Both the position numbers and the translations under genes were made by a program. A stretch of 64,000 nt of DNA from Thermoleophilia bacterium (GTDB lineage Bacteria; Actinomycetota; Thermoleophilia; UBA2241): positions 1,712 through 65,711 of the forward strand of contig DASRZL010000126.1 in assembly GCA_035686425.1 (NCBI GenBank). Direction: 5' to 3'. Positions 12,315-63,469 of this stretch are shown here, piece after piece. The notes below the pieces were generated by a model. The model saw only the letters and a program-made list of their open reading frames with translations, was not told the DNA's origin and searched no databases. Numbering within the stretch: the first letter of the stretch is position 1; each line of letters begins with the position of its first letter.

Positions 12315-12926
12315 TCAGCCGGGCCTGATCACCCGCGTCTCGGTGACGATCGCCGTCACCGGAAGGTCATGCGTCTCGCACACGATCCGGGGCATCAGTT
12401 GCGTCTCGAACGCGAGGGCGACCCAGGGCGTGCCCGGGCGGGTGAGCCGAAGGTAGGTGTCGTAGAAGCCGCCGCCGTAGCCGCAGCGGCCTCCCTCCTC
12501 ATCGAACGCCGAACCCGGTACGAACACGATGTCCATCTCCTCCGGAGGGATCTCGAGCAGCCCCTCTCGCGGCTCGGGGATGCCCCAGGTCCCGGCGACG
12601 AGGTCCGAGGCCGGATCGGTGACGCGGAACGCCTCCATCGTCCGGGCGCTGCGGATGCGCGGCAGGCAGAGCGTCTTGCCGGCCGCGAGCACCCGCTCCG
12701 CGAGCGGCGCGGTGTCGAGCTCGGTGCGGAACGAGGCGAACGACATGACGGTACCGGCGGCGGCCAGCTCGGGGAGGCTGGCGGCGCGGGCGCACACGGC
12801 CGCGCTGAGGCGTTCGCGCTCCGCCGCGGGCAGGGCGGCACGAGCGTCGAGGCCGCAGCGGCGTGCCTCCGTCTTGAGGAGGCCCTCGCCGTCTTCGTCG
12901 GGTCGTTGTTCTCGTTCTGGCGTCAT
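12315..12926 (-). CDS. 5-formyltetrahydrofolate cyclo-ligase
   Basis: MTHFS family motifs (GxGYYD-like GGGFYDTYL near the C-terminus); start taken at internal ATG (MTPEREQ). Confidence 0.7.
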   Translation of the reverse strand: MTPEREQRPDEDGEGLLKTEARRCGLDARAALPAAERERLSAAVCARAASLPELAAAGTVMSFASFRTELDTAPLAERVLAAGKTLCLPRIRSARTMEAFRVTDPASDLVAGTWGIPEPREGLLEIPPEEMDIVFVPGSAFDEEGGRCGYGGGFYDTYLRLTRPGTPWVALAFETQLMPRIVCETHDLPVTAIVTETRVIRPG

Positions 12927-13040
12927 GCTGGCCCTTCCGGCGTACACTGGGCTGGTTACGCTTCACGGGCGCCGGGGCGCGATGGTATGTCTGGGCGCCG
13001 CCTCCGTGGCCTATAGTATAGGCAGAGTCGCCCTGCGGGC

Positions 13041-28178: not shown

Positions 28179-29200
28179 GCTTCGAGGACGCGCCGGTAGA
28201 TCGCCTCGTAGTCGGCGACCATGCGCCCGACCGCGAACCGCTCTTCGACCGTGCGGCGACAGACGGCCGGGTCGATCTCACCGACCCGGCCCACGGCCGA
28301 GATGAACTCCTCGAGGTCGTCACACACGAAGCCGGTGACGCCGTCGTCCACGACCTCCGGCACCGAGCCCTGGTGCAGCGCCACGACGGGCGTGCCGCAG
28401 GCCATCGCCTCGATCATCACCAGGCCGAACGGCTCCGGCCAGGTGATGGGGAAGACGAAGGCGTGCGCGTGGGCGAACAGCTCGCGCTTGCGGGCGTCGC
28501 TCACCTCGCCCTCGTAGACGATCTGGTCGCCGTCGATGTGCGGGGCGACCAATGTCTCGAAGTACTCGCGGAACGGCTCCTGCAGCACGCCGGCCATGAT
28601 GAGCCGCCGGCCGGTGCGCCTGGCCGCCTCGATGCTGAGGTGAAAGCCCTTGGCCTCGCAGACGCGCCCGAAGGCGAGCAGGTAGTCATCCTTCTCGGGG
28701 GTGTAGGGCCACTGCTCGACGGCGATGGCGTTGTAGGCGAGCCCGGCCCAATCCATCGCCGGCGGTCCCATCGACTGCTGGTAGGCGCTGATGCCGACGT
28801 ACGGCACCTCGCCGGCGAACTGCTCGTAGAAGCCGTAGGCGGCGGCGTCGAAGGCGCAGTGCACGGTGTGCAGCATAGGAGTGGCCAGATAGCGGCTGAA
28901 GGCGATGCCGATGAAGCCCGAGTGGTCGTGGACGAGGTCGAACCCGCCCTCGTCGATGTCGGCGAAGGCGAACGAGACCTGCCGCGCGTCGTAGCTGGTC
29001 TGGCCGAGGACCTCGGGCATCTGCCTGGGGAAGAGGGCGCAGAGCTCGGCGGCCGTGTGCGAGTCGCCGGTGGCGTACAGGCGGACCTCGTGCCCGCGCT
29101 CCACGAGCCCGTCGCACAACTGCTGGACGACCCATTCCGTGCCGCCGTAGCCGGCGGGTGGGACGGTGATCCACGGGGGTGCGAGCTGTGCGATGCGCAT
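28175..29200 (-). CDS. Glycosyltransferase family 4
   Basis: GT-B fold, EPFGLVMIEAMACGTPVV motif; stop overlaps methyltransferase start (ATGA). Confidence 0.8.
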   Translation of the reverse strand: MRIAQLAPPWITVPPAGYGGTEWVVQQLCDGLVERGHEVRLYATGDSHTAAELCALFPRQMPEVLGQTSYDARQVSFAFADIDEGGFDLVHDHSGFIGIAFSRYLATPMLHTVHCAFDAAAYGFYEQFAGEVPYVGISAYQQSMGPPAMDWAGLAYNAIAVEQWPYTPEKDDYLLAFGRVCEAKGFHLSIEAARRTGRRLIMAGVLQEPFREYFETLVAPHIDGDQIVYEGEVSDARKRELFAHAHAFVFPITWPEPFGLVMIEAMACGTPVVALHQGSVPEVVDDGVTGFVCDDLEEFISAVGRVGEIDPAVCRRTVEERFAVGRMVADYEAIYRRVLEA

Positions 29201-29346
29201 GGCGGCATTCTATAGGAGGAACGCCGGGGCGCGAGGCGCTTATGGACGTCGGGCATCCTGCCGATGGGAGGCACACGCCCGGTATCCCGGCCGCACGATG
29301 GAGGGTATGGTCACCGGGCGAGGCGACGGCGAGGTAGAGTACGGCG

Positions 29347-30642
29347 ATGATCCTGTACCTGGACTGCTCGAGCGGCATCAGCGGCGACATGCTGGTCGCC
29401 GCGCTGCTCTCGCTGGCCGGGGCGCGCGAGTCCGACCCCGGCCCCTTCGAGGACCTGCTTCGTCCCACGCTGGCCGCGGCCGGCATCGATCCGCGGCTCG
29501 TACAGATCGAGGACGTGCGCCGCGGCGGCATGGCGGCGCTGGCATTCAGGGTCGCCGACCAGCCGGGCTTCGCTACCTTCGATGAACTCATCATGTCCCT
29601 GTACGCGTCGGACCTCGAGCAGCCGGTCGCCGACGCGGTCGCCTCCATCGCTGAGCGCATGGCCGCCGCGGAGGCGGAGGTGCACGGCCGCGACGAGAAG
29701 CACCTGCACGAGCTGAGCGACGTCGACACGGCCGTCGACCTCATCTGCGCCGCGACTCTGCTGGACAGGCTCGCGCCGGAGCAGGTCGTCGCGTCGCCGC
29801 CCGCGCTCGGCGACGGGGAGATAGAGACCGCGCACGGCCGGCTGAGCGTTCCGGCGCCGGCTGTGCTGTCCCTGGTCGCCGGATTGCCGACGGCCGGGGG
29901 AGCCCCCGCCGTCCCGGCGGGGGGGACGCCGGCCGCCCCGCTCGGAGAGCTCACGACGCCGACCGGCGCCGCCCTGCTCGCCCACTACACGGCGGCCTTC
30001 GGCGGCCTGCCCTCCGGCCGCATCGAGCGCGTCGGCTACGGCGCCGGCCGCCGCGAGGTTCCGGGCCGGCCCAACGTGTTGCGCGCCGTCCTCGTGGACC
30101 CGGCGGCTATGCCGGAGGGGGCCGGCGAGCCGCTCGACGCAGCGCTCGCATCCGCGGCGCCGGCCGGCGCCACGCCTGCGAGCGGGCACGGCGCCGGCGA
30201 CCACGTCGTCATCGAGGCCAACATCGACGACATGACACCGGAGTTGCTCGCGCACGCCGCCGAAGCGCTGCGCGAGACCGGGGCGCTCGACGTGTGGATG
30301 AGCGACGCGCTCATGAAGAAGGGTCGCCCCGGCGTGGTGCTGCACGTGCTCGCCGCGACCGCCGATCGCGAGCGCATCACCGCCGCGATCTTTGCCGAGA
30401 CCACGACCTTCGGCCTCCGCGTCGTGCCCTGCGGCCGCGAGTATGCGGAAGAACGCCGCGAGACGGTCCAGATCGGCAAGCTCAAGGTCGACGTCCGTCT
30501 CAGCTTCGTCGGCGGCAAGCTCGCCACCGTCTCGCCCGAGTACGAGGACGTGCGCCGCGTGGCGGCGACGGTGGGACGGCCCGCAAGGGTCGTCTACGAA
30601 GCCGCGCAGTCGGCTGCCCGCAGCCGTTTCAGCGGCTCCTGA
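29347..30642 (+). CDS. larC: Nickel insertion protein LarC (DUF111, nickel-pincer cofactor biosynthesis)
   Basis: N-terminus MILYLDCSSGISGDM diagnostic of LarC; 431 aa. Confidence 0.8.
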   Translation: MILYLDCSSGISGDMLVAALLSLAGARESDPGPFEDLLRPTLAAAGIDPRLVQIEDVRRGGMAALAFRVADQPGFATFDELIMSLYASDLEQPVADAVASIAERMAAAEAEVHGRDEKHLHELSDVDTAVDLICAATLLDRLAPEQVVASPPALGDGEIETAHGRLSVPAPAVLSLVAGLPTAGGAPAVPAGGTPAAPLGELTTPTGAALLAHYTAAFGGLPSGRIERVGYGAGRREVPGRPNVLRAVLVDPAAMPEGAGEPLDAALASAAPAGATPASGHGAGDHVVIEANIDDMTPELLAHAAEALRETGALDVWMSDALMKKGRPGVVLHVLAATADRERITAAIFAETTTFGLRVVPCGREYAEERRETVQIGKLKVDVRLSFVGGKLATVSPEYEDVRRVAATVGRPARVVYEAAQSAARSRFSGS

Positions 30643-30684
30643 CGGCGCAGTCGGACAGTCCTCCCAGCGCGTACCGCGCCAAAA

Positions 30685-30714
30685 TTGACCCGTTTCTGCG
30701 CAGGCTAGTACAAT
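30685..30714 (+). promoter_or_regulatory. Candidate promoter (TTGACC-N18-TACAAT) upstream of fhs
   Basis: Sequence read directly, about 90 nt upstream of the fhs start. Confidence 0.4.
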
Positions 30715-30805
30715 CGGTCACAAGGTGCCGGCGCGCTGCCCTCTCGGCGTGCGCCGGCTCTCATCAGCGAAACGCGCGGGATAGTGGAGACCAAAGGAGG
30801 ACGCG

Positions 30806-32515
30806 TTGAGTTCGATCAGTCGCAAGTCCCCGGTGCCGAGCGATATCGAGATCGCCCAGGCCGCCACCATGCAGCCCATCCAGGCGATCGCCGAGAAGGC
30901 CGGCATCCTCGAGGACGAGCTGGAGCTCTACGGTCGCTACAAGGCCAAGATCGACTACATGGCCCTGCTCGACCGTCTCAAGGACAAGCCCGACGGCAAG
31001 ATCATCGACGTCACCGCGATCACCCCGACGCCGCTCGGCGAGGGCAAGACCGTCACCGCGGTCGGCCTCTCGGAGAGCATGAACGCCGTCGGCATCGACA
31101 CCATGCTCGCCCTGCGTGAGCCGTCCCTCGGCCCGGTCTTCGGCATCAAGGGCGGCGCGGCCGGCGGCGGCTACTCGCAGCTCATCCCGATGGAGGATCT
31201 CAACCTCCACTTCACCGGTGACATCCACGCCGTCGGCGCCGCCAACAACCTGCTCGCGGCGATGGTCGACAGTCACCTCATGCACGGCAACGAGCTCGAC
31301 ATCGATCCGCTGTCGATCTCGTGGCGCCGCGTCGTGGACCTCAACGACCGCGCCATGCGCGAGATCGTCAACGGTCTCGGCGGCAAGCTGAACGGCATCC
31401 CGCGCCAGACCGGCTATGACATCACCGTCGCCAGCGAGGTCATGGCCATCCTCGGCCTCGCCACCTCGCTCAAGGACCTGCGCGAGCGCCTCGGCCGCAT
31501 CACCTTCGCCTACGACACGTCGGGCAAACCGCTCACCGCCGACGACATCGGCGCCGGCGGCGCCATGACCGTGCTCCTCAAAGACGCCATCAAGCCGAAC
31601 CTCATGCAGACGCTGGAGGGCAACGCGGCGCTCATCCACGCCGGTCCGTTCGCGAACATCGCCCAGGGCAACAACTCCATCATCGCCGACAAGGTCGCCA
31701 TGAAGCTCAGCGACTACGTCGTCACCGAGAGCGGCTTCGCCGCCGACCTGGGCGCCGAGAAGTTCATGGACATCATCTGCCGCTACGGCGGCTTCGCGCC
31801 GAGCGCCGTGGTCATCACGTGCACCATGCGCGCCCTCAAGATGCACGGCGGCTTGCCGGTCAACCCCGAGCTGCTCAAGGAAGAGAACAACGAGGCCCTC
31901 TCAAAGGGCTGCGAGAACCTCGCCAAGCAGATCGAGAACATGAAGTACTTCGGTGTGCCGGTCGTGGTGACGATCAACCGGTTCGCGTTCGACCGCGACG
32001 CCGAGATCGAGATCGTGCGCAAGGCTGCGATCGAGGCCGGCGCCGAGGACGCAGTGCCGATCAACGTCCATGCGATGGGCGGCGACGGCGGTCAGGAGGC
32101 GGCCGAGGTCGTCAAGGCGGCCGCCGACAAGGGCGGGGACTTCCAGTTCCTGTATCCGCTCGAGGCCTCCATCAAGGAGAAGATCGAGACCATCGCCACC
32201 AAGATCTACGGCGCCGACGGCGTGGACTACCTGCCCGAGGCCGAGGCCAAGATCAAGCAGTTCACCGAGCAGGGTCTGGACAAGCTGCCGCTCTGCATGG
32301 CGAAGACGCACCTGTCGCTGAGCCACGACCCGGCGCTCAAGGGCCGTCCGCGAGGCTTCCGCGTGCCGATCCGCGACATCCGTCCCGCCACCGGCGCCGG
32401 GTACCTGTACCCGCTGCTCGGCGAGATGCGCACCATGCCCGGCCTGGCCAAGCGGCCGGCCGCCGTCGACGTCGACATCGACGTCGAGACCGGCCGGATC
32501 ATCGGCCTGTTCTGA
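30806..32515 (+). CDS. fhs: Formate--tetrahydrofolate ligase
   Basis: SDIEIAQ...PTPLGEGKTVT...signature, 569 aa; TTG start. Confidence 0.9.
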   Translation: MSSISRKSPVPSDIEIAQAATMQPIQAIAEKAGILEDELELYGRYKAKIDYMALLDRLKDKPDGKIIDVTAITPTPLGEGKTVTAVGLSESMNAVGIDTMLALREPSLGPVFGIKGGAAGGGYSQLIPMEDLNLHFTGDIHAVGAANNLLAAMVDSHLMHGNELDIDPLSISWRRVVDLNDRAMREIVNGLGGKLNGIPRQTGYDITVASEVMAILGLATSLKDLRERLGRITFAYDTSGKPLTADDIGAGGAMTVLLKDAIKPNLMQTLEGNAALIHAGPFANIAQGNNSIIADKVAMKLSDYVVTESGFAADLGAEKFMDIICRYGGFAPSAVVITCTMRALKMHGGLPVNPELLKEENNEALSKGCENLAKQIENMKYFGVPVVVTINRFAFDRDAEIEIVRKAAIEAGAEDAVPINVHAMGGDGGQEAAEVVKAAADKGGDFQFLYPLEASIKEKIETIATKIYGADGVDYLPEAEAKIKQFTEQGLDKLPLCMAKTHLSLSHDPALKGRPRGFRVPIRDIRPATGAGYLYPLLGEMRTMPGLAKRPAAVDVDIDVETGRIIGLF

Positions 32516-32665
32516 GAACCTGAAGGAGCGACCCCGGGGCGCCGGCCGCCATGCGGCGCCGGCGCCCCGCGGAGCCCTTCTGGGCTCCGCTTCGACCGGC
32601 GACTCGTCCGGCCTGCCGGTCGCTCCCCGTCCGCGGCGCCCCGCGCGCCGCGCTGGAGGTACACG

Positions 32666-33307
32666 GTGAGCGACGGTCCCACCATCTACGCATCCGAGCC
32701 CCTGCAGGTCTACCTCGACGACGCCGCCAGCAAGAAGCCGGCGCCGGGCGGCGGCAGCGTGTCGGCCTGTGTCGGCGCCCTCGGCGCCGCGCTCGTCGCC
32801 ATGGTCTGCAATCTCACCCAAGGACGTGAGAAGTTCGCCGACGTCGAGACCGAGATCGTCGCCCTGGTCGGCCAGGCCGACGACGCCCGCGCGCGCCTTG
32901 AGCAGCTCCTCCAGGACGACACCACGGCGTACAACGGCGTCATCGCCGCCTTCAAGATGCCCAAGGACACCGACGAGGAGAAGGCCGCCCGCAAGGCCGC
33001 GGTGCAGGCCGGCCTCGTCGTCGCCGCAGACGTCCCGCTCGAGATCTGCCGCGTGGCCGTGGACGTGTGTCGCCTCGCGAAGGTCGCCGCCGAGCTCGGC
33101 AACCCGCAGGCGGTCACCGACGCCGGCATCGGCGCCATCCTCGGAGAGGCGGCCGTGGTCGGCGCCGCGCTCAACGTGCGCATCAACCTCGGCTCCATCG
33201 AGGACTGCGACTACACCCTGGCCGCCGCGGCGGAGATCGACAAGATCGAGGCCGAGGCCGCGGCGCTCCGTGCCGAGGTCCTCGCCATCACGCTCTCCAA
33301 GCTCTGA
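32666..33307 (+). CDS. fchA: Methenyltetrahydrofolate cyclohydrolase (FchA / formiminotransferase-cyclodeaminase family)
   Basis: Cyclodeaminase/cyclohydrolase fold (GGGSVSA...NLT), about 213 aa. Confidence 0.7.
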   Translation: MSDGPTIYASEPLQVYLDDAASKKPAPGGGSVSACVGALGAALVAMVCNLTQGREKFADVETEIVALVGQADDARARLEQLLQDDTTAYNGVIAAFKMPKDTDEEKAARKAAVQAGLVVAADVPLEICRVAVDVCRLAKVAAELGNPQAVTDAGIGAILGEAAVVGAALNVRINLGSIEDCDYTLAAAAEIDKIEAEAAALRAEVLAITLSKL

Positions 33308-33340
33308 TCACCCCTGACGACCGTAAACGAGAGGGAAGCC

Positions 33341-34204
33341 ATGGCAGCTCAGATCATCGACGGCAAGGCGATCGCCGAGCAGGTCCGCGAGGAGATCAAG
33401 TCCGAGGTCGCGGAGCTCGCGACCTCCGGCGTCACGCCCGGCGTCGCGACGATCCTCGTCGGCGAGGACGGCGGCGCGCAGTTCTATCGCGGCCAGATCG
33501 AGAAGAACACCGGTACGGTGGGCTTCAACTACTTCAGTCACGTGCTCCCGGCCGCCGCGAGCGAGGCTGAGGTCCTCGATCTCATCGCCAAGCTCAACGC
33601 CGACCCGAGCGTACACGGCATTCTCGCGCTCATGCCGATGGACGCCGACATCGACCAGAACACCGTGTTCAACGCGATCGCTCCCGAGAAGGACCTCGAC
33701 TGCGTGAACCCGGCCAACATCGGCCACGTGCTGCTCGGCGACCAGCTGTTCGCGCCGGCCACGCCGAGCGCCTGCATCGAGATCCTCGACCGCGAGGGCA
33801 TCGAGCTGTGTCCCGGCGGCAAGGGTCTCAACGTGACTATCGTGAATCACTCCAACATCGTCGGGAAGCCGGTGGCGCTGCTCTGCCTCAACCGCAACGC
33901 CTCGGTCCACGTGGTCCACGTGTTCAGCAAGGACGTGCCCGCCGCCTGCCGTGAGGCCGACGTGCTCATCTGCGCCGCTCCGGTGCAGAACCTCATCAAG
34001 GCCGACATGGTCAAGCCGGGCGCCGTGGTCATCGACGTCACGACCATCCGCGTCGACGGCAAGCAGGTCGGCTCCCTCGAGTTCGAGGCTGTGTGCGAGG
34101 TCGCCGGCCGCGTCACACCGGTCCCCGGAGGCGTCGGCCCGGTCACCAACGTCATCCTGCTCAAGAACGCCCTCGCCGCCTGCAAGGCGCAGACGGCCGG
34201 CTGA
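33341..34204 (+). CDS. folD: Bifunctional methylenetetrahydrofolate dehydrogenase/methenyl-THF cyclohydrolase
   Basis: MAAQIIDGKAIA..., PGGVGPVT C-terminal motif. Confidence 0.9.
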   Translation: MAAQIIDGKAIAEQVREEIKSEVAELATSGVTPGVATILVGEDGGAQFYRGQIEKNTGTVGFNYFSHVLPAAASEAEVLDLIAKLNADPSVHGILALMPMDADIDQNTVFNAIAPEKDLDCVNPANIGHVLLGDQLFAPATPSACIEILDREGIELCPGGKGLNVTIVNHSNIVGKPVALLCLNRNASVHVVHVFSKDVPAACREADVLICAAPVQNLIKADMVKPGAVVIDVTTIRVDGKQVGSLEFEAVCEVAGRVTPVPGGVGPVTNVILLKNALAACKAQTAG

Positions 34205-34372
34205 TCGCGGGGCCGGCGGCGGGCGCGGCGGCCCTCCGGGCCGCGCTACCCGCCGCCGGCCAAGTATGCTTCACTGAATCCAGACTGAAGACGCAGATGG
34301 GAAGGAGGGCGGCCGGACTGGTGCGCCATGGCCGCCCGACGAACGCGGAAGTGCGAAGGTGGAGTTGATGTG

Positions 34373-34924
34373 ATGCCCAGCCCAGCAGTGCCCTCCAAGC
34401 CTGCCGCGACCGGGGGAGGAGCCCCCGGGGCGGACGTCGACCTCGAGCAGGTCCAGACGCTCGTCGCGGAGATCGACCCCCACGGCAACCTGATCGCGCT
34501 GCTGCAGCGCGCCCAGGCTGTCTTCGGCTATCTGCCGGAGCCGGTCGTCGACGAGATCGCCCGGCTGAGCGGCGTCCCGGCCTCGCGCATCTACGGCATC
34601 ATCACCTTCTACGCCCAATTCTCCACGGTCCCCAGCGGGCGGCACAAGATCTTCGTCTGTCACGGTACAGCCTGTCACGTGGCCGGCGCGACGCGCATCA
34701 CCGAGGCGCTCGAGCAGGAGCTCGAGGTCGGCGACGGCGAGACCACGGCCGACAGGGAGTTCACGCTCGGCTCGGTCGCCTGCATGGGCGCCTGCTCGCA
34801 GGCGCCCGTCATGCGCGTCGAAGAAGAGACCTACGGCAACCTCAGCGCCGACGAGACGCGGAAGATCGCGCGCAAGCTCCTGGCCGAGGTGCTCGAGGAG
34901 CGCGGGGGCGATGGCGATGCCTGA
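34373..34924 (+). CDS. NuoE/HoxE-like 2Fe-2S thioredoxin-like subunit of a NAD(P)H-dependent diaphorase
   Basis: CHGTAC...C...C 2Fe-2S motif (VCHGTACHVAG, ACMGACSQAP); overlaps the NuoF-like gene. Confidence 0.75.
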   Translation: MPSPAVPSKPAATGGGAPGADVDLEQVQTLVAEIDPHGNLIALLQRAQAVFGYLPEPVVDEIARLSGVPASRIYGIITFYAQFSTVPSGRHKIFVCHGTACHVAGATRITEALEQELEVGDGETTADREFTLGSVACMGACSQAPVMRVEEETYGNLSADETRKIARKLLAEVLEERGGDGDA

Positions 34925-36809
34925 GGTCACCCCAGCGCCCGCCGAGGGCGTCAAGGTCGGCGTCTCCACCGGCGCGGACGGCCGGCGGCGCGTCTCGGTG
35001 TGCGCCGGCACCGCCTGCGTCTTCGCCGGCTCCATGAAGATCCACGACGCCTTCGTCGCCGAGATCGCCGAGGCTGGGCTCCAGGACGAGGTCGAGGTCG
35101 GCATCATCGGCTGTCATGGCCTCTGCTCCCAGGGTCCGCTGGCGGTGGCCTCGGACGGAGACACGTATTACCCGCGCCTCAAGCTCAAGAACGTGAAGAC
35201 GATCGTCGAGGAGCACCTCGTCGGCGGCGCGGTCGTGGAGAAGCTCCTGTACACCGACCCCGCGACCGGGGAGCGTATCGCCTGCGCCCACGACATCCCC
35301 TTCTACAAGGCGCAGACGCGTGTCGCGCTGCGCAACGTCGGCGTCATCGACCCGGAGAGCCTGGACGAGTACCTGGCGCGCGGTGGCTACGAGGCCGCGC
35401 GCAAGGCGCTCACGACGATGGAGCCGGAGGAGATCGTCCAGATGGTGCTGGACTCCGGGCTGCGCGGCCGGGGCGGCGCCGGGTTCCCGACGGGCATGAA
35501 GTGGAAGTTCGCGGCCGCCTCGCCGGGTGAGGTCAAGTACATCATCTGCAACGGGGACGAGGGCGACCCCGGCGCGTTCATGGACGCCTCCATCATGGAC
35601 GGCGATCCGCACGCTGTGCTGGAGGGCATGCTGATCGGCAGCTACGCCATCGGCGCCCACGAGGGCTACATCTACGTGCGCGCCGAGTATCCGCTCGCCG
35701 TCAAGCGCCTGCGCCTCGCCATCGCCGCAGCTGAGGAGCGCGGACTGCTGGGCGACGACGCGCTCGGCAGCGGCTGGGACTTCAAGCTCAGGATCAAGGA
35801 GGGCGCCGGAGCCTTCGTCTGCGGCGAGGAGACGGCGCTCATCGCCTCCATCGAGGGCAAGCGCGGCATGCCGCGCACGCGGCCGCCGTTCCCTGCGGTC
35901 TCGGGCCTCTGGGGCAAGCCGACGAACATCAACAACGTCGAGACGTGGGCCAACGTGTCCTGGATCGTCGCCAGCGGGCCGGCCGCCTACGCCTGCCACG
36001 GGAGCGACGCGTGCAAGGGCACCAAGGCCTTCAGCCTCGCCGGCAAGATCGTCAACGGCGGCCTCGCCGAGGTGCCGATGGGCTCCACGCTACGGCACGT
36101 CATCTTCGACGTCGGCGGCGGCATCAAGGACGGCAAGCAGTTCAAGGCCGTGCAGCTGGGTGGCCCGTCCGGCGGGTGCGTGCCGGCGAGCCTCCTCGAC
36201 ACGCCGGTCGACTACGAGAGCCTGGCCGCGACCGGCGCCATCATGGGCTCCGGCGGCATGGTGGTCGCCGACGACACCACGTGCATGGTCGATCTCGCGA
36301 GGTACTTCCTGCAGTTCACCCAGAACGAGAGCTGCGGCAAGTGCGTCCCCTGCCGCCTCGGCACCAAACGCATGCTCGAGATCCTCGAGCGCATCTGCGC
36401 CGGTGAGGGGGAGGAGGGCGACGTCGAGCGCCTCGAGAAGCTGGCCGTCACCATCAAGAAGACCAGCCTCTGCGGCCTCGGCCAGACGGCGCCCAACCCA
36501 GTGCTCACGACCATCCGCTACTTCCGCGACGAGTATCGGGCCCACATCGACGACCGCCGCTGCCCCGCGCTCTCGTGCGAATCGCTCATCGCCTACTCCA
36601 TCGATCCGGAGGCCTGCACCGGCTGCACGTTGTGCGCCAAGAAGTGCCCGGTCGAGGCCGCGACCGGCGAGAAGAAGCAGGTCCACACCATCGACCAGGC
36701 GCTCTGCATCCGCTGCGACGCCTGCCGCGTCGCCTGCAAGTTCGACGCGGTCAAGGTCGTGAGCGGGCCGGAAGAGATCGCCGCGGCGGTGCGGGCGCAG
36801 AGCGCCTGA
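34911..36809 (+). CDS. NuoF/HoxF-like flavoprotein (FMN, NAD(H)-binding, SLBB, 4Fe-4S) with N-terminal 2Fe-2S domain and C-terminal 2x[4Fe-4S] ferredoxin domain
   Basis: GRGGAGFPTG FMN motif, CGKCVPCR N3 cluster motif, C-terminal CTGCTLCAKKCP and CIRCDACRVAC. Confidence 0.85.
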   Translation: MAMPEVTPAPAEGVKVGVSTGADGRRRVSVCAGTACVFAGSMKIHDAFVAEIAEAGLQDEVEVGIIGCHGLCSQGPLAVASDGDTYYPRLKLKNVKTIVEEHLVGGAVVEKLLYTDPATGERIACAHDIPFYKAQTRVALRNVGVIDPESLDEYLARGGYEAARKALTTMEPEEIVQMVLDSGLRGRGGAGFPTGMKWKFAAASPGEVKYIICNGDEGDPGAFMDASIMDGDPHAVLEGMLIGSYAIGAHEGYIYVRAEYPLAVKRLRLAIAAAEERGLLGDDALGSGWDFKLRIKEGAGAFVCGEETALIASIEGKRGMPRTRPPFPAVSGLWGKPTNINNVETWANVSWIVASGPAAYACHGSDACKGTKAFSLAGKIVNGGLAEVPMGSTLRHVIFDVGGGIKDGKQFKAVQLGGPSGGCVPASLLDTPVDYESLAATGAIMGSGGMVVADDTTCMVDLARYFLQFTQNESCGKCVPCRLGTKRMLEILERICAGEGEEGDVERLEKLAVTIKKTSLCGLGQTAPNPVLTTIRYFRDEYRAHIDDRRCPALSCESLIAYSIDPEACTGCTLCAKKCPVEAATGEKKQVHTIDQALCIRCDACRVACKFDAVKVVSGPEEIAAAVRAQSA

Positions 36810-36828
36810 CGTCTTGAGACTCGCGCCT

Positions 36829-36872
36829 TCGGGCCCGGCGATGCCGTCACGGCGTCGCCGGGCCCTATGCGT
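36829..36872 (+). terminator. Rho-independent terminator-like hairpin after the NuoF-like gene
   Basis: GGGCCCGGCGATGCC-N-GGCGTCGCCGGGCCC inverted repeat followed by TATGCGTCTTTACT. Confidence 0.5.
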
Positions 36873-37056
36873 CTTTACTGCGCGGACCCCTTGCCTTCCG
36901 GCATTCCTTGCGCATATCTTTCGCTCGGTGATCAATCTGCGTCACGATCGATACCGCGGACCGAGGGGGTGGACCACACAGCGACAGTCGTGAGAACCAG
37001 TAGTAAGCGGATTGTCGCCGGGGCACGGCCGGGAGTCCGCCAACAAGGGGGGTAGT

Positions 37057-38682
37057 GTGGCAGAAGAACTCGCTTTCGCACGAAAGGCCAGCGGCCTGGT
37101 CCGCGGCCTCTCCATGACCGACGCCATCGCCGTCGGCATGATGAACCAGGGCATCACGCCCAGCATCTGGACGATGATCACCTGGGGCCTCGGCACCTAC
37201 CTGACCGGTAACCTGCTCTGGGCCAGCATCATCTCGCTCGTGCTCGTCGGCTTCGGCTTCCCGCTCGTCTGGGGCGTGCTCTCCGGGAGCATGCCGCGCT
37301 CGGGCGGTGAGTACATCTACAACTCGCGCATCATCCACCCGATCGTCGGCATCGCCGAGAGCTTCGGCAACGCCTTCGTGATGATCTTCTGGGTCTACAT
37401 CCTGGCGCCGTGGATCGCCGACCCCGGGCTCGTGATCTTCGCCGAGTACCAGGGCTGGACCTGGCTCTACGACTCGGCCACCGGAGCCTTCTTCGGCGGC
37501 CTCTCTTACGACTGGGGCGTGTTCGTCGTCGCCACCGTCTCCAACATCATCGCCTTCTTCACGGTCGTCTTCGGCATGAAGATCTTCGCCACCGTGCAGA
37601 AGACGATCATGGGCTTCGCCCTCGGCGGCGCCGCCGTGGTCACCGGGGCGATCATGTTCAGCAGCAAGGACGGCTTCGCCGAGAAGTGGGACGCGATCGC
37701 CGCCCAGTACGACTCGCTCGCCTACTCCGAGGTCGTGCCCGCGGTGTCGGCCGCCATCGGCGAGGCGGTGCCGACGAGCTCGACCTTCTACGGCACCCTC
37801 GGCGTCATGGTCGCCGGCTCGTGGCTGTTCGCCTACGCCTACTTCTGCGTCTTCGTCGCCGGCGAGGTCAAGCGCCCCGACAAGACGCTGATCACGGCCA
37901 ACTTCATCGCCATCCTGATCCCCGCCTGCTTCATGATCTGGACGGCGCTGGCGATGTACCGGACGATGCCCTTCGACTTCATCTCGGCGACCGCCTGGAT
38001 CGACAACAACGGCGGCATCGAGGGCTACAACCTGCCCTACCTGCCGAGTTACATGAGCCTCGCCTACATCGCCCACTCGAACTGGTTCATCGCCCTGGCG
38101 GCGAGCGGTTCCTACATCCTCTTCACCTTCTGGTATCTCTCGCTCAGCTACCTCGCCTTCCCGCGCATCATCTTCGCCTGGGGCATGGACCGCATGGGTC
38201 CCAAGTGGTTCACCTCGATCAACCCGCGGTGGGCGAGCCCGGTGAAGAACTACATCCTCTGCTTCGTCCTCTGCCAGGGTGCGATCGCGCTCTACACCTT
38301 CTGGCTGGGCAGCTACATGCAGGGCCTCACCGTGACCGGCATGGAGATCGTCTCGGTCTGGGGCGTGACCACCATCGCCGCGCTCATCTTCCCCTACGTG
38401 AAGCGCGCCAAGGGCATCTGGGAGTCCTCGCCCTACCGCACCTGGAAGTTCCTCGGCGTGCCGCTCGTCTCCTGGGGCGCCCTGGCTTCTCTGGTCTACC
38501 TGGGCATCCTCTTCTACTTCCTCATCTTCACCGAGGAGATGAAGGACTCCAACGGCCAGTCGTGGATCCTCTACGGCATCGTCTGGATCATCGGTATCCT
38601 CTGGTACTTCTTCTGGGCGGCGCGCAGCAAGAGCGTCGGCGTCGACGTCGGTATGACCTACGGGGAGCTGCCGCCGGAGTGA
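37057..38682 (+). CDS. APC superfamily amino acid/polyamine transporter
   Basis: About 540 aa, 12+ TM helices; GTG start chosen by homology with paralog start MAEELAFARKASGLVRGLSM. Confidence 0.7.
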   Translation: MAEELAFARKASGLVRGLSMTDAIAVGMMNQGITPSIWTMITWGLGTYLTGNLLWASIISLVLVGFGFPLVWGVLSGSMPRSGGEYIYNSRIIHPIVGIAESFGNAFVMIFWVYILAPWIADPGLVIFAEYQGWTWLYDSATGAFFGGLSYDWGVFVVATVSNIIAFFTVVFGMKIFATVQKTIMGFALGGAAVVTGAIMFSSKDGFAEKWDAIAAQYDSLAYSEVVPAVSAAIGEAVPTSSTFYGTLGVMVAGSWLFAYAYFCVFVAGEVKRPDKTLITANFIAILIPACFMIWTALAMYRTMPFDFISATAWIDNNGGIEGYNLPYLPSYMSLAYIAHSNWFIALAASGSYILFTFWYLSLSYLAFPRIIFAWGMDRMGPKWFTSINPRWASPVKNYILCFVLCQGAIALYTFWLGSYMQGLTVTGMEIVSVWGVTTIAALIFPYVKRAKGIWESSPYRTWKFLGVPLVSWGALASLVYLGILFYFLIFTEEMKDSNGQSWILYGIVWIIGILWYFFWAARSKSVGVDVGMTYGELPPE

Positions 38683-38731
38683 TGCTCTCGCGCCACCACC
38701 ACCCCGTCGCCGACGCGGCGACGTGAGACCG

Positions 38732-38769
38732 CTCCGGGGCGGCGCGCCAAGAGGCGCGCCGCCCCGGAG
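38732..38769 (+). terminator. Terminator-like perfect hairpin after first APC permease
   Basis: CTCCGGGGCGGCGCGCC-AAGAG-GGCGCGCCGCCCCGGAG. Confidence 0.5.
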
Positions 38770-39025
38770 CTTCCTGGCGGGACCCTGCCGGCCGCGTCAC
38801 GCGGATTCGGCGCGTGCAGTCCCCCGACTTTCGGCCGAACGACCGAAACGACCCGTGTGGGGAGGCCCTGCTCGGTGCTGGGCCGAGTCTACGCCGTATG
38901 TGGGATTCGGCAGGCTACGAACGTCGTTGATTGCCGAATCCGACACACCTTTCGCAAGCCTTGACATTTTCCGACTCTAGGTATCGAAATATACCTACGA
39001 ATGGGCCTGACCAGGAGGGGTCGCG

Positions 39026-39517
39026 TTGCCATTCTCCCTCGATACGATCGACAGGCAGATCGTGTCACTTCTCATAGAAGACGGCCGCGTCTCCTCGGCC
39101 GAGATCACCCGGCGCATCGGGCACGTCTCCGAGCGCGCCGTGCGCTACCGGATCGAGCGCCTGATTCGCACGGGGGTGATCCGCGTGAGCGCCATCGTCA
39201 TGCCCCAGGCCGTCGGCTTCGAAGTCACGGGCGACGTGCTCGTCGATGTCGCCCCCGGCAAGCTGCAGGACGTCGCCGCGCAGCTGGTCGAGTTCCCCAC
39301 GGTGAGCTACGTGGCCGGATCGGTCGGCGAAGGCGACCTCAGTGTGCAGATCTACGCACGGGACACCGAGGAGCTCCTCCGCTTCGTCAACGAGGTCATC
39401 GGCAAGGTCCCTGGAGTCACGCGCACCAAACTCGCCATGGTGCCGTGGAAGCTCAAGGACGTGTATCAGTGGCACGTGCCCCCTGAGGCCGCTGAGGAAG
39501 GGAGGGCGATCGGCTGA
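39026..39517 (+). CDS. Lrp/AsnC family transcriptional regulator
   Basis: IDRQIVSLLIEDGRVSSAEITRRIG HTH plus RAM domain; TTG start. Confidence 0.8.
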   Translation: MPFSLDTIDRQIVSLLIEDGRVSSAEITRRIGHVSERAVRYRIERLIRTGVIRVSAIVMPQAVGFEVTGDVLVDVAPGKLQDVAAQLVEFPTVSYVAGSVGEGDLSVQIYARDTEELLRFVNEVIGKVPGVTRTKLAMVPWKLKDVYQWHVPPEAAEEGRAIG

Positions 39518-39611
39518 GGCTTTCTCGTTCTTGGTTTGACGTACCATCACTCGATCACTGCAGCGCCGGCCGGGGGGCCTCGTCGGCGAGACATAGAACA
39601 AGGGGGGAAAC

Positions 39612-41267
39612 ATGGCTGAAGAACTAGCGTTTGCTCGCAAAGCCAGCGGCCTGGTCCGCGGCCTCTCCATGTGGGACGCGTTCGGCGTCGGGTTCATGAA
39701 CCAGGGGCTCACGCCCTCGATCTGGGTCATGACCAGCCTCGGCGTCGGCGTCTACCTGGGCGGCAACCTCGTCTGGGCGACCATCATCTCGATGATCCTC
39801 GCCGGCATCGGCTTCCCGATCGTCTGGGGCGTGCTCGGCGGCTCCATGCCTCGTTCGGGCGGCGAGTACATCTACAACTCGCGCATCCTGCACCCCATCG
39901 TGGGCATCGGCGAGTCGTTCGGCAACGCCTTCGTGTGGATCCTCTGGATCTACGTGCTGGCGCCCTGGCTGGCCGACCCCGGCATGGTCATGATGTCGCA
40001 GTTCATGGACTGGTCGTGGCTCTACGACAGCGCCAACGAGACGTTCTTCGGCGGCCTCAGCTACGCGTGGGGCAGCTTCGTCATCGCCACGATCGCCAAC
40101 ATCATCGCGTTCCTGTTCGTGGTGTGGGGCATCAAGTGGTTCGCGCGCATCCAGAAGGTCGTCATGATCTTCGGCATCGGCGGCTGCATCGTCCTGCTCG
40201 GCGCCATCACCTACTACGCCATGAAGCTCGGCCAGACCGGGTTCGTGGAGAGCTGGAACGCCACAGCCACGACGTACGGCTCGATCGACTACGCCGGCTT
40301 CCTCGCGGGGGCCAGCGAAGAGGCCGGTCAGATGATGCCGACCTCCTGGAACTGGTTCGACACGTTCGGCGTCATGGTCGCCGGCTCGTGGCTCTTCGCC
40401 TACAGCTACTGCATCACGTTCATCGCCGGTGAAGTGAAGCGCCCCGACAAGACCATCATCCTGTCGAATCTCTTCGCGATTCTCGTCCCCGGCTTCTTCA
40501 TGCTGTGGGCGGCCCTCGCACTCTACGGCCTGGTCAAGTTCGACTTCTTCTCGGCGACGCAGTTCATCGACAATGCCGGCAGCGACCTCGGCGGCGCCTA
40601 CACCGTGCCGTGGAGTACGAACTTCCTCGGCATCCTCGCCATGGTGACCGCCAACAAGGTCGTCCTGTTCATCTCGGTGCTGTCGTTCCTCGCCTTCGAC
40701 CTGTGGTGGGTCGCGCTCAGCTACCTGGCGTTCCCGCGCATCCTCTTCGCGTGGGGCATGGACCGCATGGGTCCCAAGTGGTTCACGGACATCAACCCGC
40801 GGTTCGCCAGCCCCGTGAAGAACCACGTCCTCTGCTTCGTCCTCGGCCAGATCATGATCGCCTTGTACGTCTTCTGGCAGAACGAAGCGATGCAGGGCCT
40901 GGCAGTCACGGCCCTGGAGATCTTCTCGGTGTTCGGCGTCACGGCTATCGCGGCGCTGGTCTTCCCCTATGTCAAGCGCGCCAGAGGCATCTGGGACGCG
41001 TCTCCGTACAAGACCTGGAGGCTCGCCGGCATCCCGGTAGTCACGATCGGCGCCATCGTCGACCTGATTTACCTGGGCATCCTGGCCTACTTCTTCTTCT
41101 TCCTGCCCGACCCCGCCAAGCGCCTCGAGGGCTTCACCACCTCGACGGGCCTGGTGATCGCCATCACGTGGATCTTGGGCATCATCTGGTATTTCTTCTG
41201 GAAGCAGCGCAGCAAGAGCGTAGGCGTCGACGTTTCGATGACCTATGGCGAGTTGCCGCCTGAGTGA
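39612..41267 (+). CDS. APC superfamily transporter (tandem paralog of 37057..38682)
   Basis: Near-colinear identity with upstream permease (same N-terminal MAEELAFARKASGLVRGLSM, same C-terminal KSVGVDV.MTYGELPPE). Confidence 0.75.
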   Translation: MAEELAFARKASGLVRGLSMWDAFGVGFMNQGLTPSIWVMTSLGVGVYLGGNLVWATIISMILAGIGFPIVWGVLGGSMPRSGGEYIYNSRILHPIVGIGESFGNAFVWILWIYVLAPWLADPGMVMMSQFMDWSWLYDSANETFFGGLSYAWGSFVIATIANIIAFLFVVWGIKWFARIQKVVMIFGIGGCIVLLGAITYYAMKLGQTGFVESWNATATTYGSIDYAGFLAGASEEAGQMMPTSWNWFDTFGVMVAGSWLFAYSYCITFIAGEVKRPDKTIILSNLFAILVPGFFMLWAALALYGLVKFDFFSATQFIDNAGSDLGGAYTVPWSTNFLGILAMVTANKVVLFISVLSFLAFDLWWVALSYLAFPRILFAWGMDRMGPKWFTDINPRFASPVKNHVLCFVLGQIMIALYVFWQNEAMQGLAVTALEIFSVFGVTAIAALVFPYVKRARGIWDASPYKTWRLAGIPVVTIGAIVDLIYLGILAYFFFFLPDPAKRLEGFTTSTGLVIAITWILGIIWYFFWKQRSKSVGVDVSMTYGELPPE

Positions 41268-41334: not shown

Positions 41335-42267
41335 ATGATCAAGCTGTTTTTCGTCACCGACATCCACGGCTCGAACGTGTGCTACCGGAAGTTCCTGAAC
41401 GCCCTTCCGATCTACGGAGCCGACGTGGCCGTCCTTCTGGGTGACCTGACCGGCAAGGTCCTCGTCCCGCTCGTGGACAAGGGCGGGGACCAGTGGGAAT
41501 GCACCCTGATGGGGCAGTACCGCGAGATCAACGGGCAAGAGGAGCTCGCGGAGATCAAGAAGATCGTCGAGAACGCCGGCTACTACTGGGTCCACCAGAC
41601 GCGCGAGGAGTTCGACGATACGCGCGCCGACCCGGCCAAGATCGACGCGCTGTTCAAGAGCCTCGTCTTCCAGCGCGTGCAGGAGTGGCTCGACCTCGCC
41701 GACGAGCGACTCGAGGGCAAGCCCTACCAGATGTACATGGCGCCGGGGAACGACGACTGGTTCGTGATCGACGACATGATCGACAACGCCAAGCTCGTGC
41801 ACCCCTGTGACAAGCGTGTCGTCGAGATCGACCATCACGAGATGATCACCTCGTCGGCGTCCAACCCGACGCCTTGGGACACGCCGCGCGAGATGAGCGA
41901 GGACGACCTCGAGGTGCACCTGCGCGAGCTGTGCGCCAAGGTCAAGAACCAGGGCACGGCGATCTACAACTTCCACGTGCCGCCCTACGGCTACTCGCTC
42001 GACCTGTGCCCCAAGCTCGATGAGAACCTGACCATGGCCGCCGACGAGAAGATCCACGCCGGCAGCATGGGCGCCAAGCGGGTCATCGAGGAGTTCCAGC
42101 CGCTGCTCGGCCTGCACGGCCACATCCACGAGTCACGCGGTGCACAGAAAGCCGGGCGCACGCTGCTCATCAACCCGGGCAGCGAGTACTCTGAGGGCAT
42201 CCTCAAGGGCGTCATCATCATGCTCGACAAGAAGAAGGTCAAGGACTACGTCTTCACCTCCGGGTGA
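41335..42267 (+). CDS. Metallophosphoesterase (calcineurin-like phosphoesterase)
   Basis: FFVTDIHGS, LLGDLTG, GNDD, GHIH motifs. Confidence 0.75.
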   Translation: MIKLFFVTDIHGSNVCYRKFLNALPIYGADVAVLLGDLTGKVLVPLVDKGGDQWECTLMGQYREINGQEELAEIKKIVENAGYYWVHQTREEFDDTRADPAKIDALFKSLVFQRVQEWLDLADERLEGKPYQMYMAPGNDDWFVIDDMIDNAKLVHPCDKRVVEIDHHEMITSSASNPTPWDTPREMSEDDLEVHLRELCAKVKNQGTAIYNFHVPPYGYSLDLCPKLDENLTMAADEKIHAGSMGAKRVIEEFQPLLGLHGHIHESRGAQKAGRTLLINPGSEYSEGILKGVIIMLDKKKVKDYVFTSG

Positions 42268-42328
42268 GCGGCGCGTAGACTCCATCTTTCGAGACGACGC
42301 CGAACCCGGAAGGGGGCGATAGGTAGAT

Positions 42329-43135
42329 ATGGGACAGTTCATCCTGCCGAAGGACATTCCACTCGACCGCTATCCCAAGCCCGAGGTCTTCCTCGAGGAG
42401 GGCAAACGGATCACGGAAGCAGCGCAGAAGCAGGGCATCATCATGCGCGTCATGGGCCCGCTTGCGCTGCACTACTACTTCCCGGACCAGGTCGACCTGT
42501 ACGCCAAGCTCGAGCGTCTGGGCGACCGCTACTTCACCGACATCGACTACGCCGTCTACGGCAAGGGCCGCAAGGGCATGGCCAAGCTGATGGAGTCGCT
42601 CGGCTACGAGAACGATCTCCAGACCATGGCCATGACCGGGCAGACCCGCCAGATCTACTTCGGCGGCAAGGTCCCCATGATCGATATCTTCTTCGACAAG
42701 CTCGACTACTGCCACGAGATCGATTACGCGGGGCGCCTCGAGCTCGATCCCTGGAGTGTCTCGCTCGCCGACATCCTGCTGCAGAAGCTGCAGATCTGGG
42801 AGATCAACGACAAGGACCTCAAGGACATCGAGTACCTGTTCACCGTCGCCGACTTCGGCGAGGACGACACCAGGAAGGTCAACGTCGGCTACATCTCCAG
42901 GCGTTTCGCCGACGACTGGGGCTTCTGGTACACCGCGACCACCAACCTCGACCGCGTCAAGGACCACGTCGACGGCGTGGACGCCCTGAGCCCCGACCAG
43001 AAGGCCAAGATCAAGCAGGTGGCCGACGACGTCAGGGCGCGGATCGACCAGGAGCCCAAGACGCGCAAGTGGGAGAAGCGCGCCAAGAAGGGCACCAAGA
43101 AGATCTGGTACAACACCGGTTTCTCCGACTGGTGA
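42329..43135 (+). CDS. Hypothetical protein
   Basis: 268-aa ORF with AGGTAG RBS-like spacer and good coding statistics; no family recognised. Confidence 0.5.
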   Translation: MGQFILPKDIPLDRYPKPEVFLEEGKRITEAAQKQGIIMRVMGPLALHYYFPDQVDLYAKLERLGDRYFTDIDYAVYGKGRKGMAKLMESLGYENDLQTMAMTGQTRQIYFGGKVPMIDIFFDKLDYCHEIDYAGRLELDPWSVSLADILLQKLQIWEINDKDLKDIEYLFTVADFGEDDTRKVNVGYISRRFADDWGFWYTATTNLDRVKDHVDGVDALSPDQKAKIKQVADDVRARIDQEPKTRKWEKRAKKGTKKIWYNTGFSDW

Positions 43136-58657: not shown

Positions 58658-58669
58658 GAAGGGAATCCG

Positions 58670-59170
58670 ATGCCCCACGTGATGATCAGCAGGAAGAAGT
58701 GCACCGGGTGCCACATGTGCGAGCTGGCGTGCTCGGCCCACCACGAGAACGCCTACCGGCCGTCGGTCGCGCGCCTCTTCTCGGAGTGCAATCCGACCAC
58801 CGCCGAGATCAAGGGTCACACCTGCCTCCAGACCGGCTGCTCCAAGTGCCAGGAGGTCTGCCCGAACGACGCCATCGTGACCAAGAGGATCACGGTGACC
58901 CCCAAGGGCTTCTTCGAGAGCAAGGAGAAGGTCGGGGACACGGTGGACGGCTACGTCCTCGTCGTCGAGGAAGACAAGTGCAACAACTGCGGGGACTGCT
59001 ACGAGGTGTGCCCCACCGGCGTCATCCACGAGCACCCCGACCGCGAGGTCGCCTTCAAGTGCGACCTCTGCGGCGGCGAGCCGCAGTGCATCGCCTTCTG
59101 CCAGAACAAGTACGTGTACGCCGTCGACCTCAAGGTCGACAAGATGGACAAGGAACTGGCGAAGGCCTGA
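58670..59170 (+). CDS. 4Fe-4S dicluster ferredoxin-domain protein (AOR-associated)
   Basis: Multiple CxxCxxCxxxCP motifs. Confidence 0.75.
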   Translation: MPHVMISRKKCTGCHMCELACSAHHENAYRPSVARLFSECNPTTAEIKGHTCLQTGCSKCQEVCPNDAIVTKRITVTPKGFFESKEKVGDTVDGYVLVVEEDKCNNCGDCYEVCPTGVIHEHPDREVAFKCDLCGGEPQCIAFCQNKYVYAVDLKVDKMDKELAKA

Positions 59171-59172
59171 GC

Positions 59173-61377: not shown

Positions 61378-61381
61378 GCGC

Positions 61382-63429: not shown

Positions 63430-63469
63430 CGGCCGCGCGCGGCCCGCACGGTGTACAATCGCAGGGCGT

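Follow-up and report, generated by a model that had tools for sequence, protein, structure and literature searches.

A BfuA-less BfuC/BfuB core beside the formate-tetrahydrofolate genes of uncultured Thermoleophilia

Gene content of the locus

The stretch of DNA analysed here (the window) comprises 64,000 nucleotides of contig DASRZL010000126.1 from a Thermoleophilia bacterium (GenBank assembly GCA_035686425.1, contig positions 1,712 to 65,711), and its center is occupied by five plus-strand genes at window positions 30806-36809. An earlier note, made from the DNA alone, had read these genes as a folate module followed by a NuoE/NuoF-like diaphorase pair. Pfam matches, all far beyond chance, confirmed the five identities: a formate-tetrahydrofolate ligase (Fhs), a methenyl-tetrahydrofolate cyclohydrolase (FchA), a FolD-like dehydrogenase, a NuoE-like protein and a NuoF-like protein. 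Tetrahydrofolate is abbreviated THF below, and the last two genes are named bfuC and bfuB for the family in which they are placed in the next section.

30806..32515, + strand: fhs, formate-THF ligase, 569 amino acids (aa); Pfam FTHFS, E 2.5e-254; NCBIfam 812 bits against a cut-off of 652
32666..33307, + strand: fchA-like methenyl-THF cyclohydrolase, 213 aa; Pfam FTCD_C 3e-62; best NCBIfam model FchA
33341..34204, + strand: atypical FolD-family methylene-THF dehydrogenase, 287 aa; both FolD Pfam domains
34373..34924, + strand: bfuC (HydC/NuoE-like), 183 aa, one [2Fe-2S] cluster; Pfam 2Fe-2S_thioredx (PF01257) 1e-45
34911..36809, + strand: bfuB (HydB-type NuoF-like flavoprotein), 632 aa; Pfam architecture; flavin mononucleotide (FMN) and NAD(H), clusters B1-B5

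The same gene calls, with an identical 632-aa BfuB, are present in three metagenome contigs (ENA ERZ27256808, ERZ27256828, and ERZ27256834). The nearest named BfuB homologues and genome loci are those of uncultured Thermoleophilia metagenome-assembled genomes (MAGs), in keeping with the actinobacterial origin that the earlier note had proposed.

The pair is a BfuC/BfuB core

The open reading frame (ORF) of bfuC could start at 34328 or at 34373; the second position is preceded by a Shine-Dalgarno-like GGTGGAG and agrees with the ENA gene call. The bfuC and bfuB genes overlap by 14 nt. The Pfam domains of BfuB are, in order, 2Fe-2S_thioredx (PF01257), Complex1_51K (PF01512), NADH_4Fe-4S (PF10589), and two C-terminal Fer4 domains. 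Aligned over its full length with the B subunits of solved Bfu enzymes, BfuB scored 827 bits with Acetomicrobium mobile NiFe-HydB (7t2r_B), 805 with StnB (8oh5_B), 798 and 774 with NfnB (9bov_B and 9n5u_B, respectively), and 673-777 bits with HydB (7q4v, 8a6t, and 7p5h), whereas the non-bifurcating relatives FdsB and Nqo1/NuoF gave only 436 and ~385 bits. The closest solved relatives of BfuC are NfnC (9n5u_C) and HydC (8a6t_C and 7p5h_C).

The Bfu family is defined by a conserved BfuBC core with diagnostic features (Schut et al. 2022, PMC9304861), among them a B2 site of three cysteines and one histidine (A. mobile C438, H525, C531, and C536) that is missing from non-bifurcating homologues (Schut et al. 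2022). Residues C438, C476, H525, C531, and C536 of A. mobile HydB align with C458, C496, H545, C551, and C556 of the window BfuB. Note that A. mobile position 476 is Cys in the window protein and Thr in most relatives, and that both are permitted in Bfu enzymes. The ligands of the FeS clusters are essentially invariant across 121 related BfuB sequences (111 of fhs-type and 10 of nuo-type). Using Supplementary Fig. 10 of Schut et al. 2022 as the reference, the Bfu NADH/FMN motifs are exact in the window BfuB, with DEGDPGAFMD at residue 216 and the GAGAFVCGEETAL motif at 298. DEGDPGAFMD is kept in 119 of the 121 sequences and GAGAFVCGEE, which has Phe and not Tyr, in 116.

Both proteins fell short of the NCBIfam cut-offs for their complex I counterparts (nuoF_fam, 487.5 against 558.65; NuoE, 138.6 against 141). 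Every Bfu signature tested is present and, because the NuoF and NuoE scores are also sub-cut-off, the pair is a BfuC/BfuB (HydC/HydB-type) core, not complex I NuoEF or a diaphorase of the FdsGB type. The likeness to NuoE and NuoF seen by the earlier note thus stands, but the generic diaphorase assignment gives way to this more specific one. The window pair does have the FMN/NADH fold and the NuoE-type [2Fe-2S] fold in common with NuoEF, FdsGB, and HoxEF; however, those non-bifurcating proteins lack the His/B2 site, the AFM and GAGAF signatures, and the extra N- and C-terminal cluster domains, all of which the window pair has.

The folate genes and an atypical FolD

The three folate genes are not all standard members of their families. 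FchA scored 205 bits with its best NCBIfam model, below the cut-off of 275, and the FolD-like protein lies under every NCBIfam FolD cut-off, the best score being 270 against a cut-off of 396. The key catalytic residues of FolD are Tyr52, Lys56, Gln100, and Asp125, and the 2'-phosphate of NADP is bound by Arg173, His196, and Ser197 (PMC3368264). In the window protein, the lysine of the Tyr-x3-Lys motif is replaced by Ile (FYRGQI) and the equivalent of Gln100 by Leu (ALMPM). The 2'-phosphate ligands are also replaced: VNHS stands where human FolD has GRS (GAS in Escherichia coli and Pseudomonas aeruginosa), and HVFS where bacterial enzymes have HRFT. All of these substitutions occur in seven of the seven loci compared (the window, L084, L085, L087, L088, L090, and L092). 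Mutagenesis in the MacKenzie laboratory reportedly found that loss of Lys56 or Gln100 abolishes cyclohydrolase activity and that dehydrogenase activity stays.

Because Lys56, Gln100, and the NADP 2'-phosphate ligands are replaced, the FolD-like protein is probably a monofunctional, NAD-preferring methylene-THF dehydrogenase. A FolD lacking cyclohydrolase residues would in turn explain the presence of a separate fchA; Acetobacterium woodii likewise combines an FchA of its own with a monofunctional NAD-linked dehydrogenase. A standard bifunctional, NADP-dependent dehydrogenase/cyclohydrolase was rejected on motifs, ligands, and scores alike, although the fold is kept; the family assignment of the earlier note was right, but the enzyme is not a typical one. 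A gene for 5-formyl-THF cyclo-ligase, a further folate-salvage function on the contig, lies 18 kb upstream (12315-12947, - strand).

Conservation of the block and absence of BfuA

The order fhs-fchA-folD-bfuC-bfuB is intact in 10 distinct loci, in which BfuB is 71-100% identical. The intact block is present in the window (with L001-L003, whose BfuB is identical), L004, L005, L084, L085, L087, L088, and L092. L086 has the gene layout of L085, and an eleventh locus, L090, contains only fchA-folD-bfuC-bfuB on a short contig that starts inside the block. The earlier note had suggested an NAD(P)H/ferredoxin module genetically coupled to the folate route, and at the level of gene order this conservation supports it. 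The gene 3' of bfuB varies: a permease in the window, an AsnC gene in L004, L005, L085, L087, and L090, a cold-shock gene followed by gatCAB in L084 and L088, and a metallophosphoesterase gene in L092. A gene for a 310-aa metallophosphoesterase-like protein and one for a 268-aa protein without a Pfam match, always paired, lie at 41335-43135 of the window; this pair recurs 3' of the block in L085, L087, and L092 (in the last directly after bfuB) and is absent in L084 and L088.

No BfuA-like gene (i.e., one with a Fer2_4/NuoG-like N-terminus) occurs in any fhs-linked locus. Of the 78 other nearest genome loci, in contrast, 76 encode BfuA in cis, mostly directly after bfuB, so that its absence here is a derived trait specific to the lineage. 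Searching the window by tblastn with three types of BfuA/HydA also failed to reveal a BfuA/HydA/NuoG-like gene; the only matches were marginal ones between Fer4 domains and a ferredoxin encoded next to an aldehyde:ferredoxin oxidoreductase (AOR). A scan for H-cluster motifs, as a sign of a hidden hydrogenase, gave no match in either the window or the fhs-linked loci. These negatives agree with the earlier statement that no catalytic hydrogenase or formate dehydrogenase (FDH) subunit accompanies the pair, and no FDH or hydrogenase gene was detected within +-10 kb of any fhs-linked locus or elsewhere in the window. Neither metF, metV, nor a methylene-THF reductase (MTHFR) domain was found in the window or in any fetched flank, and the ~50 genes of the window include no metF, acsABCDE/cooS, fdh, gcv, or grd, the further genes that a Wood-Ljungdahl or reductive glycine pathway would need. 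The AOR and its Fer4 protein (56867-59170) were considered as a Wor-Bfu-like partner, but this is unlikely: they lie 20 kb away, and the island containing them is missing in L084 and L088, which keep fhs and bfuCB.

Paralogues in complex I operons

The next relatives of BfuB, at 70-75% identity, belong to BfuCB pairs inside Thermoleophilia complex I operons, where the gene order is nuoABCDH-bfuC-bfuB-bfuA-nuoJKLMN (L089, 3565-18336; L006, 6886-17316). The operon BfuA, of 824-827 aa, occupies the position of NuoG and consists of Fer2_4, a GltD-like Fer4_20/Pyr_redox_2 module (for flavin adenine dinucleotide and NAD(P)), and two Fer4 domains; the arrangement resembles an Nfn/Stn-like module attached to complex I. 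The gene calls of these two operons include no separate nuoG or nuoI. The 1.84-Mb contig JAXGLO010000001.1 carries both the fhs-linked pair and a full nuo-Bfu operon, ~600 kb apart, and its two BfuB copies are 72% identical. A displaced complex I NuoEF is thereby ruled out: the complex I operon of the same genome is already supplied with a BfuCB pair, which makes the fhs-linked one an additional paralogue and not a complex I fragment. No nuo gene is present among the annotated genes of the window. The earlier note had held that a phylogeny placing the pair with complex I fragments would speak against its reading; the nearest paralogues do indeed lie in nuo operons, but the pair is no fragment of one.

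In a neighbour-joining tree, all Thermoleophilia BfuB sequences form one clade (bootstrap 100), the sister of which is actinobacterial Por-Bfu. The inner nodes of the clade, which bear on the direction of the duplication between fhs- and nuo-linked copies, are weak (20), and the two kinds of copies are intermingled. The phylogeny of the paralogues is blurred because some BfuB sequences are mosaics of both, namely those of L091 (P0086), L094 (P0055), and L093 (P0067). The N-terminus of P0055, for example, is 79% identical to a nuo-type sequence, whereas its middle is 95% identical to the window copy; in L091, nuoABCDH-bfuCB runs directly into a permease gene. Such mosaics could have arisen by gene conversion between the paralogues or be artifacts of chimeric metagenome assembly.

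Only one position passed a strict filter for paralogue-specific residues. Of 28 positions that discriminate the paralogues, 11 lie in residues 451-550, near the B1 cluster and where contact with BfuA is expected, which suggests different partners for the two paralogues. Around the BfuA-facing B1 ligand, the canonical SLCGLGQTAPNP motif is preserved in the fhs-linked BfuB, whereas the complex I paralogue has diverged there.

Transcription signals

The signals within and around the block, and the gene that follows it, are:

30685..30714, + strand: sigma-70-like promoter TTGACC-18-TACAAT upstream of fhs (10/12 consensus matches; a consensus match only)
32536..32590, + strand: two consecutive GC-rich hairpins directly 3' of fhs (RNA fold z = -4.9; no U-tract)
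34211..34261, + strand: 13-bp perfect GC stem with an inner hairpin, directly 3' of folD (z = -4.3)
36831..36865, + strand: terminator-like 16-bp GC hairpin after bfuB (minimum free energy -46.6 kcal/mol, z = -4.5), followed by CUAUGCGUCUUUACUG
37057-38682: permease, 541 aa, downstream of the bfuB hairpin (amino-acid permease, 59% identical to the AA_permease_2 protein at 39612-41267)

The terminator and the permease that the earlier note had placed after the pair are both found. The site before fhs is the sole promoter-like one found in 29000-39700, and no intergenic gap of that region matched Rfam, riboswitches included, at E <= 1. The best 60-nt folding energy after fhs, -55.9 kcal/mol, is the strongest among the intergenic gaps of the window, and that after folD, -54.0 kcal/mol, ranks third among the gaps compared (the gap between the first permease gene and the AsnC gene, at -55.6, being second). 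Hairpins are also found in the gaps after fhs and after folD in L084, L085, and L087, although their sequences are unrelated. Judged from their predicted folds, the hairpins after fhs look like a terminator, an attenuator, or an element that stabilizes mRNA, and the overall pattern suggests three sub-units, fhs, fchA-folD, and bfuCB, with termination, attenuation, or mRNA-end stabilization between them. The gap between folD and bfuC is only 4 nt in L090, however, and co-expression of the five genes, though uncertain in view of the hairpins, is plausible.

Relation to known systems

Domain order, FeS ligands, the His/Cys B2 site, and the NADH/FMN motifs are shared with the HydABC-type Bfu enzymes of solved structure (A. 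mobile NiFe-HydABCSL, 7t2r; StnABC/NfnABC, 8oh5, 9bov, and 9n5u; HydABC, 7q4v, 8a6t, and 7p5h). The window cluster differs from Bfu holoenzymes of types 1-3 in having neither BfuA nor a catalytic subunit and in its linkage to fhs-fchA-folD. BfuA-less enzymes are recognized as type 4 of the family; they include clade 57 with Rub-Bfu, and for many members a third substrate is not evident from the neighboring genes (PMC9304861). The window pair resembles type 4 in being a BfuBC core without BfuA. In Rub-Bfu, however, a rubrerythrin gene lies downstream, whereas the window lineage has a permease, AsnC, cold-shock, or metallophosphoesterase gene there. The phyla named for clade 57 in a figure legend of Schut et al. 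2022 are Dictyoglomi, Firmicutes, and Thermotogae. The window clade is sister to actinobacterial Por-Bfu and intermingled with the complex I paralogue. Neither the word 'Actinobacteria' nor folate genes appear in the portions of the main text and supplement of Schut et al. 2022 covered here.

The Nuo-Bfu enzymes are the closest known relatives in sequence, through the BfuCB of the Thermoleophilia nuo operons, but the window pair lies outside such operons and its BfuC is 183 aa long rather than 253 aa. The phyla that dominate Nuo-Bfu in the table of Schut et al. 2022 are Deferribacteres, Proteobacteria, Planctomycetes, and Nitrospirae, and Actinobacteria are not among them.

The closest parallel in gene order is A. 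woodii cluster II, fhs1-fchA-folD-rnfC2-metV-metF, in which RnfC2-MetV-MetF is an NADH-dependent MTHFR. Both clusters have a separate FchA, and in both fhs, fchA, and folD are followed by an NADH-binding FMN/FeS protein. In A. woodii this is a single RnfC-type protein, and metV-metF follow; in the window it is a HydC/HydB-type pair, after which come a hairpin and a permease and no metVF. Genes for nuoEF near folD in one NPL-UPA2 MAG are mentioned in passing in the literature, and nothing relevant was found in the literature on C1 metabolism in Thermoleophilia.

Proposed role of the pair and alternatives

Our preferred reading, to which we attach moderate confidence, is that the pair is a BfuA-less BfuC/BfuB core acting as an NAD(H)/ferredoxin module for the folate C1 route. 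BfuB binds FMN and NAD(H) and carries an N-terminal [2Fe-2S] cluster, a [4Fe-4S] cluster beside the flavin, and the Cys3-His B2 site, with its C-terminal 2x[4Fe-4S] domain as the ferredoxin-facing end; BfuC contributes one further [2Fe-2S] cluster. The pair is joined to a presumably high-flux folate module of Fhs, a separate FchA, and the FolD-family enzyme. It would link the NAD(H) turned over by the methylene-THF dehydrogenase to the ferredoxin of a metabolism of the anaerobe type. Electrons of medium potential normally run through BfuA; that branch would either be unused, leaving a plain reduced-ferredoxin:NAD+ oxidoreductase, or be served by a partner encoded elsewhere. The gene identities, the Bfu signatures, the conserved block, the absence of BfuA in cis, and the separate complex I copy are observed. 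What we infer is that the pair works together with the folate genes, that the dehydrogenase prefers NAD, which way the electrons run, and what a third partner might be. The reading is favored by the ferredoxin-based context that the AOR and its Fer4 protein provide and by the precedents in A. woodii, in the NPL-UPA2 MAG, and among type 4 Bfu enzymes.

Several observations weigh against this assignment. No redox-active partner is encoded in cis, and because FolD has neither a flavin nor an FeS center, coupling would be possible only through free NAD(H). Reduction of ferredoxin by NADH is energetically unfavorable unless a third substrate takes part, and the NAD preference of the dehydrogenase is predicted from residue substitutions. 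Very strong terminator-like hairpins split fhs, fchA-folD, and bfuCB in most loci, and bfuCB may therefore be a separate transcript. Finally, since the whole region is syntenic in the lineage (feoB through gatCAB), conservation of the block is only moderate evidence of a functional link.

The last two points lead directly to the possibility that the neighbors are coincidental, i.e., that BfuCB is a general soluble ferredoxin:NAD+ oxidoreductase and its adjacency to the folate genes is inherited synteny. The strong hairpins between folD and bfuC and the broad synteny of the surrounding 30 kb among relatives would fit, but the block has outlasted several independent rearrangements of both flanks, and the gap between folD and bfuC shrinks to 4 nt in L090; we consider mere coincidence quite unlikely. 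We are somewhat less dismissive of a split three-subunit Bfu enzyme of the Fdh or hydrogenase kind, the third substrate of which would be the formate made or used by Fhs, although it too is unlikely. Fdh-Bfu enzymes are common (82 members in Schut et al. 2022, including HylABC-FdhF2), BfuA may be encoded away from some of the BfuA-less clusters (Schut et al. 2022), and a BfuA-facing B1 motif has been retained in the fhs-linked BfuB and not in its complex I paralogue. Such a split arrangement would nevertheless be exceptional because 76 of 78 related loci keep BfuA in cis, and neither FDH nor hydrogenase is encoded within the distances searched.

The A. woodii parallel raises the question of whether the pair is instead the electron-input module, from NADH and possibly ferredoxin, of a trans-encoded MetF(V) MTHFR, like RnfC2 of A. 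woodii or, as predicted, the NuoEFG homologues of "type X" MetFV. The gene orders match up to the flavo-FeS protein, and NuoEFG-metFV clusters in Desulfobacterales and Chloroflexi are predicted to be bifurcating MTHFRs; however, metF and metV were not detected in the window or the fetched flanks and there is no BfuA to bridge to MetV, which makes this input role just as improbable as coincidence. A more elaborate version, in which BfuCB without BfuA joins the degenerate NAD-type FolD, and perhaps a MetF encoded in trans, in a new type 4 Bfu enzyme that takes a folate-bound C1 unit as its third substrate, i.e., a ferredoxin-coupled (bifurcating or confurcating) methylene-THF dehydrogenase/reductase, is in our view very unlikely. 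If true, a non-acetogenic actinobacterium would conserve energy by tying the oxidation or reduction of C1 units to its ferredoxin pool, possibly with input from pyrrolysine-dependent methylamine methyltransferases. Least credible of all is an alternative N-module for the Bfu-type complex I, in which the fhs-linked isoform docks on the GltD-like BfuA encoded elsewhere. The 70-75% identity of the paralogues (72% within one genome), the mosaic stretches of 85-95% identity, and the very few fixed differences are compatible with interchange, but the complex I operon has a BfuCB of its own, and 11 of the 28 discriminating positions fall in the region expected to contact BfuA, which suggests different partners.

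Returning to the NAD(H)/ferredoxin module that we prefer, what is new is a folate-linked, BfuA-less Bfu core paralogous to one embedded in complex I; BfuA-less cores themselves are already known. Bfu cores take their third substrate through BfuA, and less is understood about those without it than about any other members. Throughout an uncultured actinobacterial lineage, a core of that kind has become fixed beside the formate-THF genes, and it coexists with its complex I paralogue. Even for acetogens there is debate over which electron carriers serve the methyl branch, and a functional link, if there is one, would point to an unrecognized coupling of folate C1 redox steps to ferredoxin.

Neighboring genes and organism context

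The gene upstream of fhs and the distal features of the window are:

29347..30642, + strand: larC, nickel-pincer cofactor biosynthesis (Pfam Ni_insertion 5e-102; NCBIfam LarC 148 against 90, LarC2 126 against 50)
56867-59170: tungsten-type AOR (AFOR_N/AFOR_C) and a 166-aa multi-[4Fe-4S] Fer4 protein
60082-63542: pyrrolysine cassette of pylB, pylC, pylD, and tRNA-Pyl

The larC gene adjoins fhs in most related loci, with three genes between them in L087, and is a frequent upstream neighbor that probably lies outside the unit. LarC is the cyclometallase for the nickel-pincer cofactor, and there is no larA, larB, or larE among the annotated genes of the window.

In the pyrrolysine cassette, PylB scored 434.6 bits against an NCBIfam cut-off of 348.2 and PylC 339.4 against 248.3; pylD was recognized by its PylD_N domain, and the tRNA-Pyl, at 63470-63542, has a CUA anticodon. 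No pylS was recognized among the window ORFs examined, and no title or abstract in the literature searched connects pyrrolysine with Thermoleophilia. The cassette suggests that methylamine-type C1 substrates feed the folate route. The island from AOR to pylT is absent at the corresponding position in L084 and L088. The earlier note had called the genome aerobic-looking; with AOR and pylBCD plus tRNA-Pyl on the contig, this description does not hold. Together with the Bfu-type complex I of the relatives, these genes represent anaerobe-type, ferredoxin-based biochemistry, and these Thermoleophilia are reframed accordingly as ferredoxin-based organisms of the anaerobe type.

Two further details concern the AOR region. 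A MoaD/ThiS-like ORF ending in GG lies close to the AOR gene (region 56867-59442). The stop codon of the AOR gene, which lies near the pyl genes, is TAG, used by only 2 of 50 window genes; the ferredoxin gene follows after 12 nt in the same reading frame. Read-through from AOR into the ferredoxin gene is conceivable, but given the Shine-Dalgarno-like motif before the ferredoxin ATG, the arrangement is more likely to be coincidental.

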